DNA of 64,000 nt, taken from assembly GCF_905237065.1 (NCBI RefSeq), contig NC_059455.1, positions 34,224,034 through 34,288,033 of the forward strand, read 5' to 3'. The DNA is from Salmo salar (Eukaryota). A program made the translations under genes and the position numbers. Each line of letters starts with the position of its first letter. Position 1 is the stretch's first letter. Under the pieces are notes generated by a model, which was not told the DNA's origin, made no database searches, and was given only the letters and a program-made list of their open reading frames with translations. This document shows positions 1,725 through 52,435 of this stretch, piece after piece.

Positions 1725-2650
1725 GGTCCAAAGGGTGTGATGAGGATGCTGGTGAAAGGACTTCATTTGAGCAGAACGCCAGAGAGAAAGACGACCAACT
1801 GGATCGAAATAGACCACAGCCACCTGCAGAAGAAGTAGAGGGATTTGAACAGTACAGGTCTGGCCACAGAGAGAAGGGTAGTGGACTAGAGTTAGTGAAG
1901 ACTGAGCAGGAAGAGTATGATGTTATTTCACTACATACATCAGGAAGTGAACATGACACAGAGAAATCAGATCATGAGGAAACTGAGTTTGCTGTGGATG
2001 AGAGAGAGAGTCAGATCTGGGCGTCTTTAACAGAGCGCAACTGTGACTCGGAGGGTCCAGATTGCACTTATGGTACAGAACAATATCCACTGGATCAAGA
2101 TACAGACATACAGCTCATTCAAAGTGCAGTGGAGGGTCTCAATAGCGGTCCATCATCAGAGATGGGTGACATTAACAGAGTTATGAAAGAGATGCGAGCA
2201 CAGTCTGTTTGGAATGACAGAAGAAGTACCCCTACAGATTTGGCTCAGGCACAGCCAGGACAGCACAGAGAAACCATGCACCCAGAGAGAAGGCAGGATG
2301 GGACAACTACCAGAGTGCCGTCAGACAAACAAACGCTAGCCAATGAGGGTGCAGGATATTCCAATGTTTGGCTAAACAACGTATTCTCACTTGCCCCAAA
2401 TTGTTCAAATGGTTTCAACTCAGCAAAGGTATCCCCAAGGAGAACCCCAGCAAGAGAGAAGTGGTTTGTTTGCTCCTTTTGTGGAAAGAGCTTTGACCGG
2501 GTTGGTCACCTGGAGATGCATCAGCGGATTCATACGGGAGAGAAACCGTACAGCTGTGTGATGTGCGGAAGGTGTTTCGCTCAGCAGAGTAATCTCCGCA
2601 GACACCAGCGAGTACACAGGGGCCTCACAACAAAGCAAACTGTCTACTGA
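1725..2650 (+). CDS. C2H2 zinc-finger gene, exon 2 (acidic/serine-rich linker plus two C-terminal C2H2 fingers), stop at 2648-2650
   Basis: Acceptor 'ccttccctttcag|GG' at 1722-1724. The frame is open from 1725 and continuous with the exon 1 phase (G|GG = Gly). It ends '[51 protein letters not shown]' with the HTGEKPY finger linker. Confidence 0.75.
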
Positions 2651-7537: not shown

Positions 7538-8588
7538 ACAGTGCATTCGTAAAGTATTCAGACCCCTTCACTTTTTCCACATTTTGTTACGTTACAGCCT
7601 TACTCTAAAATGGATTAAAGTGTTTTGTTTTTATCTACACACAATTCCCCATAATGACAAGACAAAAAACTGAAATATCACATTTATGGAGGTCCTGAGC
7701 ACTCTGGATCAGGTTTTCATCAAGGATCTCTGTACTTTTCTCTGTTCATCTTTCCCTCGATCCTGGACTAGTCTCCCAGTCCTTGCCGCTGAAAAACGTT
7801 CCCACAGCATGATGCTGCCACCATTATGCTTCCCTGTAGGGATGGCATTGGCCAGGTGACGAGTGGTGCCTGGTTTCTTCCAGATGTGACGCCTGGCATT
7901 CACGCCAAAGAGTACAATCTTGGTTTCATCAGACCAGAGAATCTTGTTTCTCATGGTCTGATAGTCCTTTTGGCAAACTCCAAGTAGGCTGTCATGTGCA
8001 TTTTACTAAGGAGTGGCTTCCGTCTGGCCACTCTACCATAAAGGCCTGATTGGTGGACAACTGTAGAGATGGTTGTCCTTCTGAAATGTTCTCCCATCTC
8101 CACAAAGGAACTCTGGAGCTCTGTCAGAGTGACCATCAGGTTCTTGGTCACCTCCCCGACAAAGGCCCTTCTCCCCCGATTGCTCAGTTTGGCCGGGCAG
8201 CCAGCTCTAGGAAGAGTCTTGATGGTTCCAAACTTCATCCATTTAAGAATGACGGAGGCCACTGTATTCTTGGGGACCTTCAATGCTGCAGAAATGTTTT
8301 GGTACCCTTCCCCAGAGCTGTGCCGAGACACAATCCTGTCTTGGAGATCTACGGACAATTCCTTCGAACACATGGCTGAGTTTTTGCTCTGACATGCACC
8401 GTCAACTGTGGACCTTATTTAGACAGGTGTGTGCCTTTCCAAATCATGTCCAATCAATTGAATTTACCACAGGTGGACTCCAATCAAGTTGCAGAAACAG
8501 CTCAAGGATGATCAATGGAAACAGGATGCACCTGAGCTAAACATTTTTGAGTCTCATAGCAAAGGGTCTGCATACTTATGTAAAGAAT

Positions 8589-16439: not shown

Positions 16440-18950
16440 TACTTGCAACGTGAATTGGTGACCACGGTCGGAGATTATGTCAGTTGGAAAGCCATAGTGC
16501 CGAAGACCTGCTGGAACAATGCCTCAGCGACCCAGAGAGCGGTAGGGAGACATGAGAAAGGGATAAAATGGCAGGATATGGACAATCTGTCCACAAAAAA
16601 CCTAACGGTGGTGAAACCATCAGACAAGGGAAGATCAGTAATAAAATCTATAGATAGATGGGACCAAAGCCGCTGAGGCAAGGGAAAGGGAAAGAGTCTC
16701 CCTGCTGGGTGGAGAATATGTCCACAAAAAACCTAACAGTGGTGAAACCATCAGACAAGGGAAGATCAGTAATAAAATCTATAGATAGATGGGACCAAAG
16801 CCGCTGAGGCAAGGGAAAGGGAAGGAGTCTCCCTGCTGGGGCGTGCCGGGGAGACTTGGTTTGATCACATACAGAGCAGGAGTTGATGTGGCGGTGACGT
16901 CCTGCGCCAAGGTGGGCCACCAGTACTTCACGGAGATGGATTGAGTGGTGTGGGTGATACCTGGGTGTCCAGCAGCAAGGGATGTGTGCGCCCAGTTCAA
17001 TAGCCAATCCCTTACCTCCGTAGGAACGCTCCTGAGGACAGGTAGCAGGCACGGATCCCTCTCCAGAGCCTGGTGTATGTCCACTTCTATGTCCCAAAGC
17101 ACGAGTGCAACGAATTGGGAGGGCTGTATGATGGGCACACTCAGGACTGGAACCTCTCCTGAATCATGGAGATGGGACAGGGCATCGACTTTGATGTTCT
17201 TTGAACCTGGGCAGTATGACAGGGTGAAGTTGAATCTTGTAAAGAAAAGGGCCCATCTTCCTTGACGCGGGTTCAGCCGCTTCACTGTCCGTATGTACTC
17301 CAGGTTCCAATGGTCATTGAAGATGAGAAACGGGTCCGTGGCTCCACTCATCTAATGCCAACTTCACCTACAGGAGCTCCTGATCACCGATGTCATAGTT
17401 CCTTTCTGCAGAAGACAGTTTTTTAGAGTATGCACATGGATACAATTCTTGTGGATTAACTTGAGGTTGTGACAGGACGGCCCCCACACCCACTTCTTAG
17501 GCATCCACCTCCACCACGACGGGCAGCGTAGGATCTGGGTGTTTCAGCAGTAGGCAGAAGGCCTCATCGGCTGCAGGATTCCACACCAACCTACGGGGAG
17601 CACCTTTGAGGAGAGAGGTGAGAGGAGAGGCGATGAAGCTGAAGTTCCTAATGAAGTGGCGGTAGAAGTTGGCAAACCCCCAAAAACGTTGTTGTCCCTT
17701 TATGGTGGTTGGGACTGGCCATGACCTGACTATATTTATCTTCCTCTCCTCCATAACCACTCCCTGTGGGCTGATCCGATATCCCAAGAAGGAGACAGCG
17801 GCCTGTTGGAACTGGCACTTCTCCACTTTGACATACAGATGGTTCTCCAGGAGGCGTGCCAGGACTCCCCCGATGTGGGCAATGTGCTACTCCAAGGTGG
17901 CCGAGAAAATCAGGATGTTGTTGATTTATACGACCACCTGATGCCCAAGCATGTCCCGAAACACCTCGTTCAGTAATGCCTGGAACACTGACAGAGCATT
18001 GGCTAATCCATAAGGCATCACCAAGTACTCGTAGTGCCCAGACATCGTGCTGAAGGCCGTCTTCCATTCATCCCCCTCCTGGATGCAGATGAAATTGTAG
18101 GCACTACGCAGGTCCAGCTTGGTAAAGAAAAACAGGCCTTGCGGAGCTGTTCAATGGTGGCCGGCATCAATTGGAGGGGGTAGCGGTACTTGGTGGTGAT
18201 GGCATTGAGACCTCTGTAGTCAATACATGGACGAAGACCCCCCTCCTTCTTGGCCACGAAGAAGAAACCTGCCGACGCAGGGGAAGTGGATGGGCAGATG
18301 AAATCTTGTTGGAGAGCCTCCTTGATGTATTCCTCCATAGCCTTGCTTTCAGCCACCGACAGTGGGTAGATGCAGAGTCTGTTAGCAGGTCGATGGCACA
18401 GTCCCAGGGGCAATGAAGAAGGAGACAGGTGGCGAGGGTCTTGGAGAAAACCTCCCTGAGAACCTGGTAAACCTCCAGGATGTCGGCCTGGAGGGCAACC
18501 ATAGGACTCTCAACTGACGTGGAACCACAGGGTAAAGGAAAGCAGGTCTTCTGACATCCGGGTGCCCAGGCCGTGGTCTCCATCCTCGAGCAGGAGATGG
18601 TGGGGTTGTGGCTTGGGAGCCCTACGAGGCCGAGGATGACTTTGTGTACGGGTGCCTGGATGATGAGGAGGGAAGGTTTTCTTGGTGCAGAGGTCCCACG
18701 CATTTGGATGGAATCCCATCATATTTGTCTGGAAGAGACAAAAGGGCATCGCTAACCTGGGAAGACTGCTGAATGGACTGGGGTGCTGGCTCGCTGGGTC
18801 GACTCATTGTAGAAGATCCTCCGCTCGTTAGGGGTGACGTCCTTTGAGGAATATCTAGACGTAGAAGAACGCAGAGGACCTCATCCATAGCCATCCCTAG
18901 TTGCACCAGCTGGTCGTGGTGTTGGCAAAGTAGGTCGCCCTTGTTTGCCG
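16440..18950 (-). mobile_element. Ty3/gypsy LTR-retrotransposon pol fragment (protease-RT-RNaseH-integrase), frameshifted, with an internal 136-bp tandem duplication
   Basis: ORFs 18018..18413(-) RT ('[33 protein letters not shown]'), 17497..17826(-) ('[50 protein letters not shown]'), 16779..17351(-) ('FFTRFNFTLSYCPGSKNIKVDALSH') and 16648..17097(-) integrase ('CSVCDQTKSPRHAPAGRLLPFPLPQRLWSHLSIDFITDLP'). Confidence 0.8.
16592..16863. repeat. Tandem duplication of about 136 bp inside the gypsy integrase region
   Basis: 'gacaatctgtccacaaaaaacctaacggtggtgaaaccatcagacaagggaagatcagtaataaaatctatagatagatgggaccaaagccgctgaggcaagggaaagggaa' occurs twice in tandem. ORFs 16475..16681(-) and 16648..17097(-) share the 'LPFPLPQRLWSHLSIDFITDLPLSDGFTTVRFFVD' segment. 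Confidence 0.85.
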
Positions 18951-24639: not shown

Positions 24640-27600
24640 GAAAATAACAAATAATTAAAGAGCAGCAGTAAAATAACAGCAGCAAGGCTATATACGGGTG
24701 GTACCGGTACAGAGTCAATGTGCGGGGGCACAGGTTAGTCGAGGTAATTGAGGTAATTCGTACATGTAGTTAGAGTTAAAGTAATTATGCAGAGATAATA
24801 AAGCGAGAGTAGCAGCAGCGTAAAGGGGGGGGGGGCAATGCAAATACTCAGGGTAGCCATTTGAGTAGCTGTTCAGGAGTCTTATGGCTTGGGGGTAGAA
24901 TCTGTTAAGAAGCCTTTCCGTGCTGTAGCAGAGAGAACAGTCTATGACTAGGGTGGCTGGAGTCTTTGACAATTTTTAGGGCCTTCCTCTGACACTGCCT
25001 GGTATAGAGGTCCTGGATGGCAGGAAGCTTGGCCCCAGTGATGTACTGGGCCGTACACACTACCCTCTGTAGTGGCTTGTGGTCAGAGGCCGAGCAGGTG
25101 CCATACCAGGCAGTGATGCAACCCGTCAGGATGCTCTTGATGGTGAAGCTGTATAACTTTTTGAGGATCTGAGGACCCATGCCAAATCTTTTCACTCTCT
25201 TGAGGGGGAATAGGTTTTGTCGTGCCCTCTTCACGACTGTCTTGGTGTGTTTGGACCATGATAGTTTGATAGTTTGATAGACCATGATAGTTTGTTGGTG
25301 ATGTGGACACAAAGGAACTTGAAGCTCTCAACCTGCTCCACTACAGCCCCATCGATGAGGATAGGGACCTGCTCGTCCTCCTTTTCCTGTAGTCCACAAT
25401 TATCTCCTTTGTCTTGATCACATTGAGGAAGAGGTTGTTATCCTGGCACCACACGGCCAGGTCTCTGACCTCCTCCCTAAAGGCTCTCATCGTTGTCAGT
25501 GATCAGGCCTACCACTGTTGTCATCTGCAAACTTAATGATTGTGTTGGAGTCATAACTGGCCATGCAGTCATGGGTGAACAGGGAATACAGAAAGGGACT
25601 GAGCACGCACCCCTGAGGGGCCCCTGTGTTGAGGATCAGCGTGGCAGATGTGTTGTTACCTACCCTTACCACCTGGGGTCGGCCCGTCAGGAAGTCCAGG
25701 ATCCAGTTGCAGAGTGAGGTGTTTAGTCCCAGGGTCCTTAGCTTAGTGATGAGTTTTGAGGGCACTATGGTGTTGAACGCTGAGCTGTAGTCAATGAATA
25801 GCATTCTCACGTAGGTGTTCCTTTTGTCCAGGTGGGAAAGGGTAGTGTGGAGTGCAATAGAAATTGCATCATCTGTGGATCTGTTGGGGTGGTATGCAAA
25901 TTGGAGTGGGTCTAGGGTTTCTGGGATAATGGTGTTGATGTGAGCCATGACCAGCCTTTCAAAGCACTTCATGGCTACAGACGTGAGTGCTACTGGTCGT
26001 AGTCATTTAGGCAGGTTACTGTAGTGTTCTTGGGCACAGGGACTATGGTGTTCTGCTTGAAACATGTTGGTATTACAGACTCAGTCAGGGACAGGTTGAA
26101 AATGTCAATGAAGACACTTGCCAGTTGGTCAGCGCATGCTCGGAGTACACGTCCTGTTAATCCGACCTGTTTAAAGGTCTTACTCACATCGGCTACACAG
26201 TGCGTGATCACACAGTCGTCAGGAACAGCTGATGATCTCATGCATGCTTCAGTGTTGCTTCCCACGAAGCAAGCGTAGAAGTATTTTAGCTTGTCTGGTA
26301 GGCTCGTGTCACTGAGCAGCTCACGGCTGTGCTTCCCTTTGTAGTCTGTAATAGTTTTCAAGCCCTACCACATCCGATGAGCGTCGGACCTGATGTAGTA
26401 CGATTCAATTATAGTCCTGTATTGATGCTTTGCCTGTTTGATGGTTCGTCAGAGGGCAAAGCGGGATTTCTTATAAGCGTCTGGGTTAGAGTCCCGGTCC
26501 TTGAAAGCGGCAGCTCTACCTTTTAGCTCAGTGCGGATGTTGCCTGTAGTCCATGGCTTCTGGTTGGGTTATGTACGTACGGCCACTGTGGGGATGATGT
26601 CATCGATGCACTTATTGATGAAGCCAGTAACTGATGTGGTGTACTCCTCAATGCCATCGGATGAATCCCGGAACATATTCCTGTCTGTGCTAGCAAAACA
26701 GTCCTGTAGCTTAGCATCTGCGTCATCTGACCACTTCTTTATTGACCGAGTCACTGGTGCTTCCTGCTTTAGTTTTTGCTTGTAAGCGGGAATCAGGAGG
26801 ATAGAATTATGGTCAGATTAGCCAAATGGAGGGCGAGGGAGAGCTTTATACTTGTCTCTGTGTGTGGAGTAAAGGTGGTCTAGAGTTTTTTCCCCTCTGG
26901 TTGCACATTTAACGTGCTGATAGAAATCAGGTAAAACGGATTTAAGTTTCCCTGCGTTAAAGTCCCCGGCCACTAGGAGCGCCGCATCTGGATGAGCGTT
27001 TTCCTGTTTGCTTATTGCCTTATACAGCTCATTGAGTGCGGTCTTAGTGCCATCATCGGTTTGTGGTGGTAGGTAGACAGCTCAGAAAAATATAGTTCAA
27101 AACTCTCTTGGTAAATAGTGTGGTCTACAGCTTATCATGAGATACTCTACCTCAGGTGAGCAAAACCTCAAGACTTCCTTAATAAGTTAATATTAGATTT
27201 CGTGCATCAGCAGTTATTTACAAATAGACACCCTTGTCTTATCGGAGCCAGCTGTTCTGTCTTGCAAATGCAGCGTAAACCCCACCAGCTGTATGTTATC
27301 CGTGTCTTCGTTCAGCCACAACTTGGTGAAACATAAGATATTACAGTTTTTAATGTCCCGTTGGTAGAATATTCATGATCGTAGCTCGTTTATTTTGTTA
27401 TTCAATGATTGTACGTTGGCTAATAGGACTGATGGCAGATTACCCACTCGCCGTCGGATCCTTACAAGGCACCCTTACCCCTGACCTACACCCCTCTGTC
27501 TCTTTCTCATGCAAATGACGGGGATTTGGGCCTTGTCGGGTGTCTGAAGTAAATCCTTCACGTCCGACTCGTTAAAGAAAAAAATCTTTGTCCAGTACGA

Positions 27601-34458: not shown

Positions 34459-34695
34459 CTGAAAAGACAAAAATACAGCCTTTCAAAATCAACCTTACAC
34501 AGGAAGAACTGTGAATGGGTACAGAGTAGATGAGTAGTTAAGCACAACTGATTGTTTGAATTGTAGATCTGATCAAATGCAGGATATTTATCCCAAAAGC
34601 TATTGTAACATTATACCCAGGAAGTGACCCAATGTATCCCTTCTCTTTGCAGGTTATACATTATAGACAAGTGAACGTGATACGTTGTTTCTCAC

Positions 34696-34942
34696 CTTGG
34701 GGGTCATGTTGTGAGTGATACAGAACTGCAGGTGTGTGAGGATGCTCTCCATGCTGTGGTAGGGCTGCTGGCGCGTGGTCCTCAGGTACTTCTGCATGGC
34801 TCGGGCCATGGGGGCGAAGATAGCCTGAGCCGCCTCCCGGGGGTCCATCACCTCACGGGGGTGTTTGGGGGACGATGCTGCGGGGTCATCATCCTGGAGA
34901 CGCTTGATGTGGGTGAAGGCCTCTTCCACTGCCACTACCAGC
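34696..34942 (-). CDS. vangl2: vangl2 exon 6
   Basis: ORF 34654..34983(-). '[16 protein letters not shown]...[55 protein letters not shown]' matches human VANGL2 '[16 protein letters not shown]...[56 protein letters not shown]'. Donor 'AAG|gtgaga'. Confidence 0.9.
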
Positions 34943-34984
34943 CTGGACAACGCAACAATCATCATTATGATCACCATCATCATG

Positions 34985-35422: not shown

Positions 35423-35558
35423 CTGGCCTTCCGCTTGCGGCACCTGCGGTCCAGCTCGGCCTCCTCGTAGTAATACTCACTGTGAGAGTTGTCTCTCCTG
35501 CGGGCTGCAGCAGCAATCATGGCCCGGGACTGACTGTTGGTGTTATTGGTGCTGTTCT
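35423..35558 (-). CDS. vangl2: vangl2 exon 5 ([46 protein letters not shown])
   Basis: Acceptor 'ccacag|AG', donor 'GCCAG|gtaaga'. Matches human '[46 protein letters not shown]'. Confidence 0.9.
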
Positions 35559-35693
35559 CTGTGGATCAAAACATATACATCAGTCAGTGGATGGATGGAT
35601 GAATGGAGTGAGGTAAGGGTTGGTTAGTTGGTGGATGAATGGATGGATAGAGGGATGAGGTAGAGAAAGTAAGTAGTCTATAATGCTATTTAC

Positions 35694-35827
35694 CATCCAG
35701 AGAGTAGACTTTGAATCCAGACATCTTCTTGGAGAGGATAGACTTGGGCAGGTTGAGCAGGGCAGGGTTGTAGACAGGGAAGTCCCTGTAGTACTGATCC
35801 AGCACCCACACTGCTGCCCTCTGGACA
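35694..35827 (-). CDS. vangl2: vangl2 exon 4 (SVQRAAVWVLDQYYRDFPVYNPALLNLPKSILSKKMSGFKVYSLD)
   Basis: Acceptor 'tgttccag|T', donor 'GATG|gtaaat'. Matches human 'SIQRVAVWILEKYYHDFPVYNPALLNLPKSVLAKKVSGFKVYSLGE'. Confidence 0.9.
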
Positions 35828-36599
35828 CTGGAACACACAGACACCAAGTATTTCTATTTACTTCGGATCTGGAATCCCTCAACTGAAGCTAGCCAGCTAA
35901 CTACCTACCAGCTATCAGTCAGCAAACCATTGCTAGCGGTCATCAGCTAACCTTTAGCTCGGAAAGCTCTCGCCAGTTCGAACAACGTGACTCAAACCAG
36001 AGCATAACGGACCTATTATGATTTGTTTTTTTAATTTCCGATATCCCCGGATTCCTATCGTGCCCAGAAACCTGCTCCTTTTACTCTCTGTTCCAAACGT
36101 GCTAGACGGCCAGTTCGTATAGCCTTTAGCCGTACCCTTATCCTACTTCTCCTCTGGTGATGTGGAGGTTAGTCCAGGTCCTGCTGTGCCTAGCTCAACT
36201 CCCACTCCCCAGGTGCTCTCATTTGTTGACTTCTGTAACCGTAAAAGCCTTGGTTTCATGCATGTTAACATTAGAAGCCTACTCCCTAAATTTGTTTTAC
36301 TCACTGCCAAAGGGGGCAGTGTTGCAATCTACTGCAAAGACAGTAATATAGAACTCTGCAGGCTTTCCAAGTCTGTACCCAAACAATTCGAGCTTCTACT
36401 TCAAAAAATTCATCTTCCAGAAAGTTTGTCACTGTTGCCGCTTGCTATAGACCTCCCTCTGCTCCCAGCTGTGCCCTCGATACCATATGTGAATTGCTTG
36501 CCCCCCCATCTATCTTCTGAGCTCGTGCTACTAGGTGACCTAAACTGGGACATGTTTAACCTCTTTGGGCTGGGGGGGCAGTATTTTCACATTCAGATG

Positions 36600-39440
36600 A
36601 AAAGCGTGCCCAGAGTAAACTGCCTGCTACTCAAGCCCAGAAGCTAAGATATGCATATTATTAGTAGATTTGGATAGAAAACACTCAACTTTCTAAAACT
36701 GTTTGAATGATGTCTGTGAGTGTTACAGAACTCATATGGCAGGCAAAAACCTGAGAAAAATCCAACCAGGAAGTGGGAAATCGGAGGTTTGTAGTTTTTC
36801 AAGTAATTGCCTATCCAATATACAGTATAAATTTGGTCAGATTGCACTTCCTAAGGCTACACACTAGATGTCAAGTCTTTAGAAGTTGTTTCAGGCTTCA
36901 ACTGTGAAAGGAAAGCGAAAAAGAGCACTCTAAGCAGATGGCCCAGGTGAAAGCCTTTAGTTTAGTGACGCTCACGGCCGTGAGCACGAGCTCCGTTCCC
37001 TTTCATTTCTAAAGGCAAAGGAATTGTCCGGTTGGAATATTATTGAAGATTTATGATAAAAACATCCTAAAGATTGATTCTATACATTGTTTGACATGTT
37101 TCTACAAACTGTAATGGAACTTTTTTGACTTTTCGTCTGAACCTAGTGCCTTGTGCATTTGGAATAGTGAACTAAACGCGCGAACAAAAAGGAGGTATTT
37201 GGACATAAAGATTAACTTTATCGAACAAAACAAACATTTATTGTGGAACTGGGATTCCTGGGAGTGCATTCCGATGAAGATCATCAAAGGTAAGTGAATA
37301 TTTATAACACTATTTCTGACTTTTGTTGACTCCACAACATGGCGGGTATCTGTATGGCTTGTTTTGGTGGCTGAGCGCTGTACTCAGATTATCGCATGGT
37401 GTGCTTTCACCGTAAAGTTTTTTTGAAATCTGACACAGCGGTTGCATTAACCTCTCTGGGCTAGGTGGGACGCCCACCTACTCAACAGCCAGTGTAATCA
37501 CGTGGCGCGTTATTCAAATACCTCAAAAACGCAAAAACTTCAATTTTTCAAACATATGACTAATTTACACCATTTTAAAGACAAGACTCTCGTTAATCTA
37601 ACCACACTGTCCGATTTCAAAAAGGCTTTACAATGAAAGCAAAACATTAGATTATGTCAGCAGACTACCCAGCCAGAAATAATCAGACACCCATTTTTCA
37701 AGCTAGCATATGTCACATAAACCCAAACCACAGCTAAATGCAGCACTAACCTTTGATGATCTTCATCAGATGACAACCCTAGGACATTATGTTATACAAT
37801 ACATGCATGTTTTGTTCAATCAAGTTCATATTTATATCAAAAACCAGCTTTTTACATTAGCATGTGACTAGCATTCCCACCGAACACTGCCGGTGAATTT
37901 ACTAAATTACTCACGATAAACGTTCACAAAAAACATAAAAATTCTTTTAAGAATTATAGATACAGAACTCCTCTATGCACTCGCTATGTCCGATTTTAAA
38001 ATAGCTTTTCAGTGAAAGCACATTTTGCAATATTCTCAGTAGATAGCCCGGCATCACAGGGCTAGCTATTTAGACACCCAGCAAGTTTAGCACTCACCAA
38101 AGTCAGATTTACTATAAGAAAAATGTTATTACCTTTGCTGTTCTTCGTCAGAATGCACTCCCAGGACTTCTACTTCAATAACAAATGTTGGTTTGGTCCC
38201 AAATAATCCATTGTTATATCCAAATAGCGGCGTTTTGTTCGTGCGTTCAAGACACTATCCGAAAGGGTAAATAAGGGTGACGAGCATGGCGCATTTCGTG
38301 ACAAAAAATGTCGAAATATTCCATTACCGTACTTCGAAGCATGTCAACCGCTGTTTAAAACCAATTTTTATGCAATTTTTCTCGTAAAAAAGCGATAATA
38401 TTCCGACCGGGAAAGCGTGTATACGTACAAAGAGAGAGAAAATAAAAACATCTCGTGCCCTCGTGCACGAGCCTGAGTCTCAGAGTACTCTGATCGGCCA
38501 CTATCCAAACGCGATAATGTTTTTCAGCCTGGGGCTGCCTCGATATCATTCAGCTTTTTCCCGGGCTCTGAGAGCCTATGGGAGCCGTAGGAAGTGTCAC
38601 GTTACAGCAAAGATCCCCAGTCTTCAATAAAAAGAGCCAAGATGAACAACAACTTGTCAGACAGGCCACTTCCTGTTCAGAATCCTCTCAGGTTTTTGCC
38701 TGCCATATGAGTTCTGTTATACTCACAGACACCATTCAAACAGTTTTAGAAACTTTAGGGTGTTTTCTATCCAAAGCCAATAATTATATGCATATTCTAG
38801 TTACTGGGCAGGAGTAGTAACCAGATTAAATCGGGTACGTTTTTTATCCGGCCGTGTCAATACTGCCCCCTAGCCCTAACAGGTTAAGGAGAAGTTTATC
38901 TATAATCCTATGCATAACATTTGTATCTTTCATCAAAGTTTATGATGAGTATTTCTGTGGCTCTCTGCAAAATCACCGGATGTTTTGTAGGCAAAACATT
39001 ACTGAACATAACGCGCCAATGTAAACTGAGATTTTTGGATATAAATATGAACTTTATCGAAATTTGATTTGATTTGATCGAACAAAACATACATGTATTG
39101 TGTAACATGAAGTCCTATGAGTGCCATCTGATGAAGATAATCAAAGGTTAGTGATACATTTTATCTCTATTTCTGCTTTTTGTGACTCCTCTCTTTGGCT
39201 GGAAAATGGCTGTATATTTCTTTGTGACTAGGTGCTGACCTAACATAATCGTATGGTATGCTTTCGCCGTAAAGCCTTTTTGAAATCAGACACTGTGGCT
39301 GGATTAACAAGAAGTTAATCTTTAAAATGGTACATAATACTTGTATGTTTGAGGAATTTTAATTATGAGATTTCTGTTTTGAATTTGGCGCCCTGCAATT
39401 TCACTGGCTGTTGTCGAGGTGGGACGCTAGCGTCCAACAT
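36600..39440. mobile_element. Cluster of a non-autonomous DNA element with terminal inverted repeats, flanked by a TTAAC duplication (piggyBac-like), inserted into the LINE. Internally arranged as a direct copy (36650-37455), an inverted copy (37500-38880) and a partial direct copy (38885-39440).
   Basis: The LINE ORF is contiguous across the insertion ('...LLGDLNWDM' | 'NTPAILQS...'). The left junction is 'gggacatgTTTAAC|CTCTTTGGGCTGGGGGGGCAGTATT'. The right junction is 'GGGACGCTAGCGTCCAACATATCCCAGAGAGG|TTTTAACacccc'. The termini are mutually inverted (CCTCT.TGGG...CCCAGAGAGG). The same terminus recurs at 37455 'ttaac|cctctctgggctaggtgggacgc' and, inverted, at 38850 'gccctaacag|gttaa'. Confidence 0.55.
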
Positions 39441-40056
39441 ATCCCAGAGAGGTTTTAACACCCCGGCCATCCTACAATCTAAGCTTGATGCCCTCAATCT
39501 CACACAAATTATCAATGAACCTACCAGGTACAACCCCAAATCCATAAACACGGGCACCCTAATAGATGTCATCCTAACTAACTCGCCCTCCAAATACACC
39601 TCTGCTGTTTTCAATCAAGATCTCAGCAATCACTGCCTCATTGCCTGCATCCGTAATGGGTCTGCGACCAAACGACCACCCCTCATCACTGTCAAACGCT
39701 CCCTAAAACACTTCTGCGGGTGACACTCTAGACCCAAACTGCTACAGACCTATATCTATCCTACCCTGTCTTTCTAAGGTCTTCGAAAGCCAAGTTAACA
39801 AAGAGATTACGGACCATTTCGAATCCCACCGTACCTTCTCCGCTATGCAATCTGGTTTCAGAGCTGGTCATGGGTGCACCTCAGCCACGCTCAAGGTCCT
39901 AAACGACATCATAACCGTCATCGATAAGAGACATTACTGTGCAGCCGTATTCATCAACCTGGCCAAGGCTTTCGACTCTGTCAATCACCACATTCTTATT
40001 GGCAGACTCGACAGCCTTGGTTTCTCAAATGATTGCTTCGCCCGGTTTCCCAACTA

Positions 40057-41623
40057 TACTGCTCAAAAAAATAAAGGGAACACTTAAACAACACAATGTA
40101 ACTCCAAGTCAATCACACTTTTGTTAAATCAAACTGTCCACTTAGGAAGCAACACTGATTGACAATAAATTTCACATGTTGTTGTGCAAATGGAATAGAC
40201 AACAGGTGGAAATTATAGGCAATTAGCAAGACACCCCCAATAAAGGAGTGGTTCTGCAGGTGGGGACCACTTCTCAGTTCCTATGCTTCCTGGCTGATGT
40301 TTTGGTCACTTTTGAATGCTGGCGGTGCTTTCACTCTAGTGGTAGCATGAGACGGAGTCTACAACCCACACAAGTGGCTCAGGTAGTGCAGCTCATCCAG
40401 GATTGCACATCAATGCGAGCTGTGGCAAGAAGGTTTGCTGTGTCTGTCAGCGTAGTGTCCAGAGCATGGAGGGTGCTACCAGGAGACAGGCCAGTACATC
40501 AGGAGACGTGGAGGAGGCCGTAGGAGGGCAACAACCCAGCAGAAGGACCGCTACCTCCGCCTTTGTGCAAGGAGGAGCAGGAGGAGCACTGCCAGAGCCC
40601 TGCAAAATGACCTCCAGTAGGCCACAAATGTGCATGTGTCTGCTCAAACAGTCAGAAACAGACTCCATGAGGGTGGTATGAGGGCCCGACGTCCACAGGT
40701 GGGGGTTGTGCTTACAGCCCAACACCGTGCAGGACGTTTGGCATTTGCCAGAGAACACCAAGATTGGCAAATTCGCCACTGGCACCCTGTGCTCTTCACA
40801 GATGAAAGCAGGTTCACACTGAGCACGTGACAGACGTGACAGAGTCTGGAGACGCCGTGGAGAACGTTCTGCTGCCTGCAACATCCTCCAGCATGACCGG
40901 TTTGGCGGTGGGTCAGTCATGGTGTGGGGTGGCATTTCTTTGGGGGGCCGCACAGCCCTCCATGTGCTCGCCAGAGGTAGCCTGACTGCCATTAGGTACC
41001 GAGATGAGATCCTCAGACCCCTTGTGAGACCATATGCTGGTGCGGTTGGCCCTGGGTTCCTCCTAATGCAAGACAATGCTAGACCTCATGTGGCTGGAGT
41101 GTGTCATCAGTTCCTGCAAGAGGAAGGCATTGATGCTATGGACTGGCCCGCCCGTTCCCCAGACCTGAATCCAATTGAGCACATCTGGGACATCATGTCT
41201 CACTCCATCCACCAACGCCACGTTGCACCACAGACTGTCCAGGAGTTGGCGGATGCTTTAGTCCAGGTCTGGGAGGAGATCCCTCAGGAGACCATCCGCC
41301 ACCTCATCAGGAACATGCCCAGGCGTTGTAGGGAGGTCATACAGGCACGTGGAGGCCACACACACTACTGAGCCTCATTTTGACTTGTTTTAAGGACATT
41401 ACATCAAAGTTGGATCAGCCTGTAGTGTGGTTTTCCACTTTAATTTTGAGTGTGACTCCAAATCCAGACCTCCATGGGTTGATAAATTGGATTTCCATTG
41501 ATTATTTTTGTGTGATTTTGTTGTCAGCACATTCAACTATGTAAAGAAAAAAGTATTTAATAAGATTATTTCATTCATTCAGATCTAGGATGTGTTATTT
41601 TAGTGTTCCCTTTATTTTTTTGA
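40057..41623 (+). mobile_element. Near-complete Tc1-like transposon (transposase ORF with about two frameshifts) inserted into the LINE RT region with a TA target-site duplication
   Basis: Inverted repeats 'tactgctcaaaaaaataaagggaacac' and its reverse complement at 41597-41623. ORFs 40248..40523, 40630..40830 and 40919..41371(+) are transposase ('VWGGISLGGRTALHVL...[42 protein letters not shown]'). Host LINE sequence 'ccaacTA|cttctctgatagag' is split. Confidence 0.85.
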
Positions 41624-41876
41624 GCAGTGTACTTCTCTGATAGAGTTCAGTGTGTCAAATCGGAGGGCCTGTTGTCCGGACCTCTGGCAGTCTCTATGGG
41701 TGTGCCACAGGGTTCAATTGTCGGGCCGACTCTCTTCTCTGTATACATCAATAATGTTGCTCTTGCTGCTGGTGATTCTCTGATCCACCTCTACGCAGAC
41801 GACACCATTCTGTATACTTCTGGCCCCTCTTTGGACACTGTGTTAACTAACCTCCAGACGAGCTTCAATGCCCGTG

Positions 41877-42012
41877 TGGCTCAGTTGGTAGAACATGGTG
41901 TTTGCAACGCCAGGGTTGTGGGTTCAATTCCCAGTACGGAGAAAAAATGTATGAAATGTATGCATTCACTACTGTAAGTCACTCTGGATAAGAGCGTCTG
42001 CTAAATGACTAA
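41877..42012 (+). mobile_element. SmaI-type tRNA-derived SINE inserted into the LINE RT
   Basis: 'gtggctcagttggtagaacatggtgtttgcaacgccagggttgtgggttcaattcccagtacggagaaaaaatgtatgaaatgtatgcattcactactgtaagtcactctggataagagcgtctgctaaatgactaaaatgtaaata' interrupts 'LQTSFNA|IQLSF' of the LINE relative to the copy at 51250. Confidence 0.8.
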
Positions 42013-43255
42013 AATGTAAATACAACTCTCCTTCCGTGGCCTCCAACTGCTCTTAAACGCAAGTAAAACTAAATGCATGCTATTCAATCGATCACTGCCC
42101 GCACCTGCTCGCCCGTCCAGCATCACTACTCTGGACGGTTCTGACTTAGAATACGTGGACAGCTATAAATACCTGGGTGTCTGGTTAGACTGTAAACTCT
42201 CCTTCCAGACTCACATTAAGCATCTCCAATCCAAAATTAAATCTAGAATCGGCTTCCTATATCACAACAAAGCATCCTTCACTCATGCTGCCAAACATAC
42301 CCTCATAAAACTGACCATCCTACCGATCCTCGACTTCGGTGATGTCATCTATAAAATAGCCTCCAACACTCTACTCAACAAACTGGATGCAGTCTATCAC
42401 AGCGCCATCCGTTTTGTCACCAAAGCCCTATACACGACCCACCATTGCGACCTGTACGCTCTCGTTGGTTGTCCCTTGCTTCATATTCGTCGCCAAACCC
42501 ACTGGTTATCTACAAGTCTCTGCTAGGTAAAGCTCTGCCTTATCTCAGCTCACTGGTCACCATAGCAGCACGCGCTCCAGCAGGTATATCTCACTGGTCA
42601 CCCCCAAAGCCAATTCCTCCTTTGGTCGCCTTTCCTTCCAGTTCTCTGCTGCCAATGACTGGAACGAACTGCAAAAATCTCTGAAGCTGGAGACTCATAT
42701 CTCCCTCACTAGCTTTAAGCACCAACTGTCAGAGCAGCTCACAGATCACTGCACCTGTACATAGCCCATCTGTAAACAGCCCATCTACCTACCTACCTCA
42801 TCCCCATACTGTATTTATTTATCTTGCTCCTTTGCACCCCAGTATCTCTACTTGCCCATTCATCTTCTGCACAGCTACCATTCCAATGTTTAATTGCTAT
42901 ATTGTAATTACTTCGCCACCATGGCCTATTTATTGCCTTAACTTACCTCATTTGCACTCACTGTATATAGACTTTTTGTTTTCTTTTGTTCTACTGTATT
43001 ATTGACTGTATGTTTTGTCTATTCCATGTGTAACTCTGTGTTGTTGTATGTGTCACACTGCTTTGCTTTATCTTGGCCAGGTCGCAGTTGCAAATGAGAA
43101 CTTGTTCTCAACTAGCCTACCTGGTTAAATAAAGGTGAAATATATATATATATTTTTTTTTAAATGGTAAGATCCATCGTCATTATGATCTTTATCATTG
43201 TGTTAGTAATGATCATCCTCATCCTATGACACACTACAGTCACACACATACTGAC

Positions 43256-43863
43256 CTGAGGTGTCCCACATTGTAGAAGCGGCTAGCCCCGTCTGTGGTG
43301 CGCACCACCTTGAGGCAGAAGGCAGGCTGCAGTTGTCTGACCTCCAGTAGCACCAGGGCCAGGTACTGGATAAAGAGCAGCGCGTCCACCAGCGACGCCG
43401 CATACTCCACGATGCCTCTATAGTCCCTTTCCCGGGGCTCCAGCACACGCACGCCATAGAACAGCCAGTAGGACGCCACGAACAGGAACACCAGCACCAT
43501 GAGCAGGCAGCGGAAGACGAAGAAGCGGGGCAGGGTGGCGCGCGGAGGGCGCAGGAACAGTGCCCAGGAGGAGATGAGGAGCACCAGGAGCTTGAAGGCC
43601 AGAGAGACGTATAGACCCTCGCAGGGCGTGCCGCAGGGCTCCAGGGCCTCACGCCACAGCAGCTGGGGGAGGACCAGGAAGGCCAGGGGGGTGAACAGGG
43701 CGAACAGGCCCAGGCAGCCACCCAGCACAGGCCCCAGGAAGCGCTTGCATTCCAGGGGAGACGATTCCTCCAGCTCCTTGGAGACGCGCGTCAGGTCCTC
43801 GTTGGAAACGCTGTGTTCTGATGTGCCTGTGACCACAGTGGTGGTCTCACCCCAGTTGTCATC
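43256..43863 (-). CDS. vangl2: vangl2 exon 3 (large exon encoding all four transmembrane helices)
   Basis: ORF 43240..43836(-). Acceptor 'ctctgtag|GAT', donor 'CTCAG|gtcagt'. '[18 protein letters not shown]...[37 protein letters not shown]...[75 protein letters not shown]' matches human VANGL2 almost residue for residue. Confidence 0.9.
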
Positions 43864-49734: not shown

Positions 49735-52435
49735 GTCACACAAATGATCAATTTATCAATGAACCTACCAGGTACAACCCCAAATCCGTAAACACGGGCA
49801 CTCTCATAGATATCATCCTAACTAACTCGCCCTCCAAATACACCTCTGCTGTTTTCAATCAAGATCTCAGCGATCACTGCCTCATTGCCTGCATCCGTAA
49901 TGGGTCTGCGACCAAACAACCACCCCTCATCACAGTCAAACGCTCCCTAAAACACTTCTGCGAGCAGGCCTTTCTAATCGACCTGGACCGGGTATCCTGG
50001 AAGGGCATTGACCTCATCCCGTCAGTAGAGGATGCCTGGTTGTTCTTTAAAAGTGCCTTCCTCACCATCTTAAACAAGCATGCTCCATTCAAAACAATTA
50101 GAACCAGGAATAGATATAGTCCTTGGTTCACTCTAGACCTGTCTGCCCTTGACCAGCACAAAAACATCCTGTGGCGTTCTGCATTAGCATCGAATAGCCC
50201 CCGTGATATGTAACTTTTCAGGGAAGTTAGGAACAAATATACACAGGCAGTTAGGAAAACTAAGGCTAGCTTTTTCAAACAGAAATTTGCATCCTGTAGT
50301 ACAAATTCAAAAAAGTTCTGGGACACTGTAAAGTCCATGGAGAATAAGAGCACCTCCTTCCAACTGCCCACTGCTCCGAGGCTAGGAAACACTGTTACCA
50401 CCGATAAATCCACTATAATTGAGAATTTCAATAAGCATTTCTCTACGGCTGGCCCGCCCCATCCCCCACCACTCCTTCACCCAAATCCAGATAGCTGATG
50501 TTCTGAACGAGCTGCAAAATCTGGACCTCTACAAATCAGCCGGGATAGATAATCTGGACCCTTTCTTTCTAAATTTATCTGCCGAAATTGTTGCAACCCC
50601 TATTACTAGCCTGTTCAGTCTCTCTTTCGTATCGTCTGAGATTCCCAAAGATTGGAAAGCTGCCGCGGTCATCCCCCTCTTCAAAGGGGGTGACACTCTA
50701 GACCCAAACTGCTACAGACCTATATCTATCCTACCCTGTCTGTCTAAGGTCTTCGAAAGCCAAGTTAACAAAGAGATTACCGACCATTTCGAATCCCACC
50801 GTACCTTCTTCGCTATGCAATCTGGTTTCAGAGCTGGTCATGGGTGCACCTCAGCCACGCTCAAGGTCCTAAACGATATCATAACCGCCATTGATAAGAG
50901 ACATTACTGTGCAGCTGTATTCATCGACCTGGCCAAGGCTTTCGACTCTGTCAATCACCACATTCTTATTGGCAGACTCGACAGCCTTGGTTTCTCAAAT
51001 GATTGCCTCGCCTGGTTTACCAACTACTTCTCTGATAGAGTTCAGTGTGTCAAATTGGAGGGCCTGTTGTCCGAAACATTGGCAGTCTCTATGGGGGTGG
51101 CACAGGGTTCAATTCTCGGGCCGACTCTTTTCTCTGTATATATCAATGATGTTGCTCTTGCTTCTGGTGATTCTCTGATCCACCTCTACGCAGACGACAC
51201 CATTCTGTATACTTCTGGCCCTTCTTTGGACACTGTGTTAACTAACCTCCAGACGAGCTTCAATGCCATACAACTCTCCTTCCGTGACCTCCAACTGCTC
51301 TTAAACTCAAGTAAAACTAAATGCAATGTATTCAATCGATCACTGCCCTGACCTGCTCGCCCGTCCAGCATCACTACTCTGGACGGCTCTGACTTAGAAT
51401 ACGTGGACAACTACAAATACCTGGGTGTCTGGTTAGACTGTAAACTCTCCTTCCAGACTCACATTAAGCATCTCCAATCCAAAATTAAATCTAGAATCGG
51501 CTTCCTATATTGCAACAAAGCATCCTTCACTCATGCTGCCAAACATACCCTCGTAAAACTGACCATCCTACCGATCCTCAACTTCGGCGATGTCATCTAT
51601 AAAATAGCCTCCAACAGTCTACTCAACAAATTGGATGCAGTCTATCACAGTGCCATCCGTTTTGTCACCAAAGCCCCATACACTACCCACCACTGCGACC
51701 TGTACGCTCTCGTTGGTTGGCCCTCGCTTCATACTCGTCGCCAAACCCACTGGCTACAGGTTATCTACAAGTCTCTGCTAGGTAAAGCCCCGCCTTATCT
51801 CAGCTCACTGGTCACCAAAGCAGCACCCACTCGTAGCACGCGCTCCATCAGGTATATCTTACTGGTCACCCCCAAAGCCAATTCCTCCTTTGGTCGCCTT
51901 TCCTTCCAGTTCTCTGCTGTCAATGACTGGAACAAACTGCAAAAATCACTGAAGCTGGAGACTCATATCTCCCTCACTAGCTTTAAGCACCAGCTGTCAG
52001 AGCAGCTCACAGATCACTGCACCTGTACATAGCCCACCTGTAAACAGCCCATCTATCTACCTCATCCGCATACTGTATTTATTTATTTATCTTGCTCTTT
52101 TGCACCCCAGTATCTCTACTTGCCCATTCATCTTCTGCACATCTACCATTCCAGTGTTTAATTGCTATATTGTAATTACTTCACCACCATGGCCTATTTA
52201 TTGCCTTAACTCCCTTATCTTACCTCATTTGCACTCACTGTATATAGACTTTTTGTTTTCTTTTGTTCTACTGTATTATTGACTGTATGTTTGGTTTATT
52301 CCATGTGTAACTCTGTGTTGTTGTATGTGTCGAATTGCTATGCTTTATCTTGGCCAGGTCGCAGTTGCAAATTAGAACTTGTTCTCAACTGGCCTACCTG
52401 GTTAAATAAAGGTTAAATAAAATAAAAAATTAAAA
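49735..52435 (+). mobile_element. 5'-truncated RSg-1/L2-like LINE with nearly intact RT, the cleanest copy in the window
   Basis: ORFs 50419..51351(+) (310 aa RT: 'FRAGHGCTSATLKVLNDIITAIDKRHYCAAVFIDLAKAFDSVNHHILIGRLDSLGF...GVAQGSILGPTLFSVYINDVALASGDSLIHLYADDTILY') and 51403..52032(+). 3' tail 'ggccaggtcgcagttgcaaattagaacttgttctcaactggcctacctggttaaataaaggttaaataaaataaaaaa'. Confidence 0.85.

Follow-up and report, generated by a model that had tools for sequence, protein, structure and literature searches.

The sequence analysed here is a 64-kb window of the Atlantic salmon genome (Salmo salar, contig NC_059455.1, positions 34,224,034 to 34,288,033 of the forward strand; all coordinates below are those of the window), and its subject is a TTAA-flanked block at 36556-39458 (TTAA sites included) that breaks the endonuclease reading frame of a long interspersed nuclear element (LINE). 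The block was resolved with a repeat map and a global alignment into two full-length elements, E1 and E2. E1 lies on the plus strand as 36560-37450 plus 38888-39452 (1456 bp in total), and E2 lies on the minus strand at 37451-38883 (1433 bp), inside E1. Both were compared with the Salmo salar families pTSsa1 and pTSsa2, which are piggyBac-like and non-coding (de Boer et al. 2007, BMC Genomics 8:422; PMC2198921) and in the supplement of that paper are named DTSsa13 (pTSsa1) and DTSsa14 (pTSsa2), with GenBank EF685967 for pTSsa2; complete alignments were made with four of the 75 published copies. The features of the locus were as follows.

36162-43142, plus strand: host LINE, a decayed non-long-terminal-repeat (non-LTR) retrotransposon with apurinic/apyrimidinic (AP) endonuclease-like and reverse transcriptase parts (from RVT_1, homologues and a second copy; 5' limit approximate).
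36556-36559, no strand: left TTAA target-site duplication of E1 (direct reading; uninterrupted LINE copies with a single TTAA).
36560-37450, plus strand: 5' part of E1, 891 bp, including the internal TTAA at 37447-37450 that was the target of E2 (aligns to about 1-890 of published pTSsa copies).
37451-38883, minus strand: E2, a complete pTSsa1-type element of 1433 bp (terminus to terminus; 86% identity to DTSsa13-1 and DTSsa13-6).
38884-38887, no strand: second TTAA copy from the E2 insertion, partner of 37447-37450 (direct reading and alignment).
38888-39452, plus strand: 3' part of E1, 565 bp, with the 3' inverted repeat ...CGTCCAACATATCCCAGAGAGG (matches published 3' ends, e.g. ...GGGACGCTAACGTCCCACCTAGCCCAGACAGG-TTAA).
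39453-39458, no strand: right junction of E1, TT (39453-39454) plus the right TTAA (39455-39458) (direct reading and empty-site comparison).

The two ends of the block are mutually inverted (CCTCT.TGGG and CCCAGAGAGG). By direct reading, the left junction is GACATGT-TTAA(36556-59)-CCTCTTTGGGCTGGGGGGGCAGTATT and the right junction is ...GCGTCCAACATATCCCAGAGAGG(ending at 39452)-TT-TTAA(39455-58)-CACC, or at greater length ...GGGACGCTAGCGTCCAACATATCCCAGAGAGG(39452)-TT-TTAA(39455-58)-CACC. E1 thus begins with CCTCTTTGGG... (5') and ends, at its 3' side, with CCTCTCTGGG..., its 5' inverted repeat being CCTCTTTGGGCTGGGGGGGCAG at 36560-36581. The same terminus was found again at 37451, with the TTAA at 37447-50 just before it, and once more in inverted form, with its end at 38883 and the TTAA at 38884-87 just after it. 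These two belong to E2, whose 3' inverted repeat at 37451-37472 reads CCTCTCTGGGCTAGGTGGGACG on the plus strand and whose 5' inverted repeat, ending at 38883, reads CCTGTTAGGGCTAGGGGGCAG on the minus strand. On comparison, the terminal inverted repeats were about 20 bp long and imperfect, the left one typically starting CCTG and the right one CCTC; this difference was seen in three of the four published references, DTSsa13-6 having CCTG at both ends.

With E2 removed, E1 aligned with E2 over the whole length of both, at 76% identity in 1326 ungapped columns, and BLAST of E1 against E2 gave E-values of 1e-50 to 1e-91. E2 is flanked by a perfect TTAA duplication (37447-50 and 38884-87). When E2 and one TTAA were deleted, the sequence became GCATTAAGGAG (at greater length ...GCGGTTGCATTAAGGAGAAGTTTATCTATAATCC...), which is colinear with what pTSsa1 copies have there, GCATAAAGGAG, and the restored E1 was gap-free across the junction against all four published reference copies. 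Since TTAA stands on both flanks and E1 is gap-free once E2 is taken out, E2 was inserted into a TTAA of E1, and the order of nesting is LINE, then E1, then E2. The divergences fit this order, the outer E1 being 74-78% identical to any copy compared and the inner E2 86-90% identical to its relatives.

The palindromic look of the block arises because E2 is inverted relative to E1; the inverted arms in the repeat map were 36574-36776 against 38666-38870 and 37158-37326 against 38096-38264. Self-comparison of six sequences (E1, E2 and the four references) revealed in every one a stretch duplicated in tandem inside the element, its period being about 400-420 bp and the self-match 307 bp in E1 and short (34-111 bp) in the other five. 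Its second unit in E1 lies at about 39074-39377 and matches 37217-37451, and it is because of this duplication that the 3' part of E1 (about 39020-39452) resembles 37187-37451. Each element holds about 5-12 TTAA sites, so that in a high-copy family copies can be expected to land in one another.

The host LINE was recognized by its reverse transcriptase part (RVT_1 match, E=3.9e-17), and E1 with E2 inside it sits in the endonuclease region. When the two sides of the endonuclease part were joined over the insertion and used as a protein query, 316 matches were returned at E<=1e-10, several of them with PF03372 or PF14529. The host reading is ...LGDLNWDM-F-NTPAILQS, in which the F codon spans the TTAA, and 14 aligned LINE homologues read ...LLGDLNWDM-L-NTPAILQSK..., with one copy having F for L. 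Two uninterrupted LINE copies, L001 and L002, were reached via the protein search, and both hold a single TTAA at the E1 site (ATGCTTAACACC in L001 and ATATTTAACACC in L002; longer reads CTGGAACATGCTTAACACCCC and CTGTGATATATTTAACACCCC, respectively). The window has ATGT-TTAA-[E1]-TT-TTAA-CACC at this place, and its frame without the block would read D-M-F-N-T. Because the empty sites hold one TTAA only, the TTAA was duplicated at the E1 site.

A second LINE copy is present in the window (49749-52419, plus strand; 5'-truncated and 93-97% identical to the first). Its start lies about 46 nt downstream of the point where E1 went in, so that it could not be used as an empty site; it keeps a 725-bp stretch (49963-50687) that has been deleted from the first copy at 39718. 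The endonuclease region of the first copy (36230-36520, plus strand) is decayed, about 40 codons being missing after ...RSLLPKFV relative to the aligned homologues, and a frameshift lies in a poly-C run near 36500 (window open reading frame (ORF) SLLPLAIDLPLLPAVPSIPYVNCLPP, homologues VAACYRPPSAPSCALDTICELIAP).

A first-pass annotation made from the letters of the window had proposed a TTAA-flanked, piggyBac-like block with inverted termini in a LINE, and the TTAA duplications, the single-TTAA empty sites and the repeated terminus bear this out. Its limits of 36600-39440 are replaced by those given above. The LINE ORF, which it had running straight from 'LGDLNWDM' to 'NTPAILQS', does continue in frame across the block, with one F codon between the halves; the TTAA duplication that it saw at both block ends is likewise present, the right TTAA standing two T away from the end of the element. 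The recurrences of the terminus beside TTAA, which it had placed at 37455 and, inverted, at 38850, were both recovered, at 37451 and with an end at 38883. A direct copy, an inverted copy and a partial direct copy had been described; the arrangement is instead the first 891 bp of E1, a complete inverted E2 and the last 565 bp of E1. The idea that a non-autonomous piggyBac-like element had reinserted into itself agrees with the perfect TTAA flanks of E2 and the restoration of E1 upon its removal.

Neither element encodes anything, the longest ORF being 79 amino acids. None of the five ORFs of 64-79 amino acids inside the block gave a Pfam match (E<=0.1), and an Rfam search over 35500-43000 gave no match inside the block, which therefore contains no tRNA-derived short interspersed nuclear element (SINE) or other known RNA element. 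E1 and E2 are like MITEs (miniature inverted-repeat transposable elements) in being non-coding, in having terminal inverted repeats and many copies, and in drawing on transposase in trans. MITEs are usually under about 800 bp long; the 1.43-1.46 kb of the present elements is about twice this usual upper size, and they differ further in their complex internal duplication. The label MITE given to them at first is thus unsuited to elements of 1433 and 1456 bp, and 'non-autonomous element' is the better term.

According to de Boer et al., pTSsa1 and pTSsa2 have a TTAA site, CCTG ends, inverted repeats of some 22 bp that differ consistently between left and right, a length of about 1440 bp and no ORF; they hold the 380-bp NheI repeat (GenBank L25409), and copies sit in the TTAA of other copies, up to three deep (PMC2198921). 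A similarity of 80-85% was the level used there to delimit the two families. E1 and E2 show the features of this group: TTAA on both sides (on the right of E1 with the extra TT), CCT(G) ends, imperfect inverted repeats, the length and the lack of an ORF. The four full-length published copies that were aligned all end at the same termini beside TTAA, DTSsa13-1 being printed with a TAA start and not TTAA. E2 was 86% identical over about 1370 bp to DTSsa13-1 and DTSsa13-6, which reaches the family level for pTSsa1, and 77-78% identical to pTSsa2 copies. It shares with pTSsa1 the length (1433 against about 1440 bp), the CCTG 5' end, the TTAA flanks, the asymmetry of the inverted repeats, the lack of an ORF and the duplication of about 400 bp; it differs in being a diverged copy, presumably dead, with a higher identity (90%) to two copies on ENA metagenome contigs than to the S. 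salar references used for comparison. With pTSsa2, both elements have in common the architecture, the termini, the TTAA target and the length, and the central region of E1 shares motifs such as CACTAGATGTCA; in contrast, identity to pTSsa2 is only 77-78%, below the family level, and nothing suggests recent activity at this locus. E1 and E2 are placed in the salmonid pTSsa group, within which E1 appears to be an older, unnamed relative. Elements of this kind, along with their target, their termini and their tendency to nest, had all been published in 2007, so that the block is of an already known and ordinary sort.

Independent copies were obtained by scanning metagenome contigs with a degenerate 23-nt conserved internal pattern, which gave three contigs (L003, L004 and L005); an earlier metagenome scan with a 24-nt internal pTSsa block gave no match. 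The copy in L005 is of pTSsa2 type and has its two flanks, reading ...TTGT-TTAA-CCTGTTAGGGCTAGGGGGCAG...CCCATAGAGG-TTAA-TGAAC..., or in short form TTAA-CCTGTTAGGG...CCCATAGAGG-TTAA. The 3' end in L004 is ...AGAGAGG-TTAA, and the copies in L003 and L004 are the two that are 90% identical to E2. Alignments to published and metagenome copies were kilobase-long, with E-values from 1e-50 down to 0. The left flank of L005, CATGACACAAGTCATTTTTCCAACAATTGT (reverse complement positions 121-150), may be an inverted repeat belonging to a Tc1-like element (Sleeping Beauty/Tss-type); in that case a further pTSsa copy would have been inserted in another transposon. The first-pass annotation had named as its own refutation that other copies might not end at these termini or might lack TTAA, and the four published copies, L005 and L004 all end there, beside TTAA. 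The family, which it had left without a name, can now be called pTSsa1/pTSsa2, with nesting already reported (PMC2198921); the name holds at the level of the family for E2, which is of pTSsa1 type; E1, at 74-78%, is below that level for both families.

Taken as a whole, the block very probably consists of two transposon copies of the piggyBac-like pTSsa group of salmonids, both of them old, inactive and non-coding, nested at TTAA in a LINE. E1 (1456 bp) would have been inserted by cut-and-paste at a TTAA in the endonuclease-coding region, and E2 (1433 bp, pTSsa1 type) would later have entered a TTAA within E1 in the opposite orientation, duplicating it. Because neither copy encodes a protein, the transposase would have been supplied in trans; from what is established for piggyBac, each copy may have been moved by a DDE transposase of that type encoded elsewhere, which would bind the imperfect inverted repeats of about 20 bp (left CCTG..., right CCTC...), excise the element and integrate it at TTAA with a 4-bp stagger. 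Salmon genomes do hold piggyBac-like transposase genes (PMC5381638, PMC5544889). E1 and E2 resemble the piggyBac superfamily (Trichoplusia ni piggyBac/IFP2 and relatives) in the TTAA duplication, the CCY termini and the short asymmetric inverted repeats, and differ from it in having no transposase gene.

Several points weigh against this reading. The assignment to the piggyBac superfamily is a putative one, drawn from the target site and the termini only, and a 4-bp TTAA with CCT termini is formally indistinguishable from a TA with ACCT...AGGT termini when every copy lies in TTAA. A tblastn search of the window for a piggyBac transposase, made with a T. ni piggyBac sequence as query, gave nothing below E=1.4, and an autonomous partner of pTSsa, or its transposase, is not named in PMC2198921 or PMC7560756. 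The duplication at E1 is imperfect, two extra T (39453-54) standing between the terminus and the right TTAA (39455-58). E1 was 74-78% identical to every copy compared (76-78% to the four published ones), below the 80-85% level for both families, and six E1-specific 12-15-mers had no occurrence in the 75 published copies (supplement of PMC2198921), so that E1 could not be placed in either named family or in a published clade.

As regards the extra TT, in the published copies as well as in L005 and L004 the ...AGG directly adjoins TTAA, which makes the TT an anomaly of E1. The standard mechanism does not explain it, and it was assumed to be a later 2-bp slip in the T run. The left end of the metagenome copy in L003 (reverse complement positions 1-12) reads GTTTTAA-AA-CCTG, the mirror image of AGAGG-TT-TTAA in E1. 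Junctions of the GGTTTTAA type were thus seen twice (E1 right, L003 left) among about a dozen junctions looked at. Each may be a 2-bp slip, the two agreeing by coincidence, or the terminus may have a variant form. If such junctions (GG-TT-TTAA in E1, TTAA-AA-CC in L003) recur, a variant terminus or an integration of non-canonical type would be a possible reading, in place of a random slip of 2 bp. The near-equal distance of E1 from both families and its central region, which is absent from the 75 published copies, are the basis for supposing that E1 is a third, older and unnamed pTSsa lineage and not a decayed copy of pTSsa1 or pTSsa2; we regard this as possible but rather doubtful.

The rival explanations concern the superfamily, the layout and the repeats themselves. 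The TTAA might be a by-product of the way in which the ends are read, the element belonging to Tc1/mariner (TA target, ACCT...AGGT ends) or PIF/Harbinger (3-bp TWA target). With its termini moved by one base, E2 can indeed be read as T-TA-[ACCTC...ACAGGT]-TA-A, with the same empty site, GCATTAAGG, predicted; likewise, the TTAA duplication with a single-TTAA empty site that was found at the LINE sites and at the reconstructed E1 site is what a TA duplication with shifted termini predicts, and no transposase is at hand to settle the superfamily. A plain TA target, however, does not predict a full TTAA at nearly every junction (E2 both, E1 left, L005 both, L004 right and the four published copies), the exceptions being the right end of E1 and the left end of L003 with two extra bases each. 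Under a 3-bp reading the flanks of E2 are unequal, TAA on the left against TTA on the right, whereas the 4-bp reading gives TTAA on both sides. The salmonid Tc1 families end in CAGT, CACT or AACT (table in PMC2198921). The ends here are CCT, the CCY of piggyBac-like elements, and not the CAGT/CACT of those families, and they are also quite unlike the ends of the Tc1-like element that sits in this LINE. Membership in one of these other superfamilies is accordingly considered improbable.

Even less credence is given to a local rearrangement, by which an inverted duplication or recombination of one or two adjacent copies, and not a second transposition, would have produced the palindromic layout. 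Long inverted arms alone would fit an inverted duplication, but the inverted unit is a complete element of the canonical 1433 bp that runs from terminus to terminus with identical TTAA on both sides, and taking it out restores E1 exactly as judged by the references. Nor would a local duplication give two copies that are only 76% identical and of different lineages (E2 86% to pTSsa1, E1 76-78%). Local inverted duplication was rejected on these grounds, namely the complete TTAA-bounded unit, its other lineage and the exact restoration of E1. That the repeated termini and their TTAA sites are a chance product of AT-rich, repetitive DNA has a negligible probability. TTAA is indeed common in the window (5.4 sites per kb), but a 19-nt pattern of the terminus (TTAACCTCTCTGGGCTAGG, with at most 3 mismatches) occurred 3 times against 0.01 expected from shuffles, none of 100 shuffles reached 3, and the alignments are kilobase-long; chance similarity was refuted by these shuffle counts and long alignments. 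By BLAST and by the scan with the terminus pattern, there were no further copies of the element outside 36560-39452 within the 64-kb window.

Two other insertions were observed in the LINE, both of them lacking from its second copy. A Tc1-like DNA transposon of about 1.57 kb at 40057-41629 (plus strand) is nested in the reverse transcriptase region. Its ORF at 40919-41371 matches a DDE_3 transposase (E=1.8e-10), and its right end is ...GAGCAGTGTA. A tRNA-derived SINE of about 147 bp with an L2-type tail lies at 41870-42019 (plus strand), with Rfam matches to tRNA at 41870-41942 (35 bits) and to the UnaL2 LINE 3' element at 41961-42014 (67 bits).

Two ORFs on the minus strand matched the Strabismus/Van Gogh-like family PF06638, one at 34654-34983 (E=1.5e-36, profile positions 338-418) and one at 43240-43836 (E=2.9e-98, profile positions 56-248). 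The LINE, along with the four insertions nested in it, therefore seems to occupy an intron of a minus-strand gene that is vangl-like. Elsewhere in the window, inspection by eye suggested a 251-amino-acid ORF at 1895-2650 (plus strand) with C2H2 zinc-finger-like repeats at its end, an N-terminal piece of a putative Tc1-like transposase at 7951-8373 (minus strand), overlapping retroelement pol-like ORFs at 16648-18703 (minus strand) and a reverse-transcriptase-like ORF at 25.5-26.0 kb, within 24905-25972 (minus strand).

For masking, the block should count as two pTSsa-type DNA transposons, one nested in the other, in a LINE, and neither as something new nor as an oddity of structure; beyond correct annotation its importance is little. 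Of the two sister families, pTSsa2 has been active recently: its intact copies of 1432-1436 bp are described as present in some and absent from other Atlantic salmon, and brown trout as having had expansions of its own (Bertolotti et al. 2020; PMC7560756). The pTSsa group, which is abundant in salmonids, has on the strength of these pTSsa2 polymorphisms been recently mobile in Salmo. Old copies such as E1 could help to rebuild the ancestral termini and thereby aid the search for the partner that supplied the transposase.

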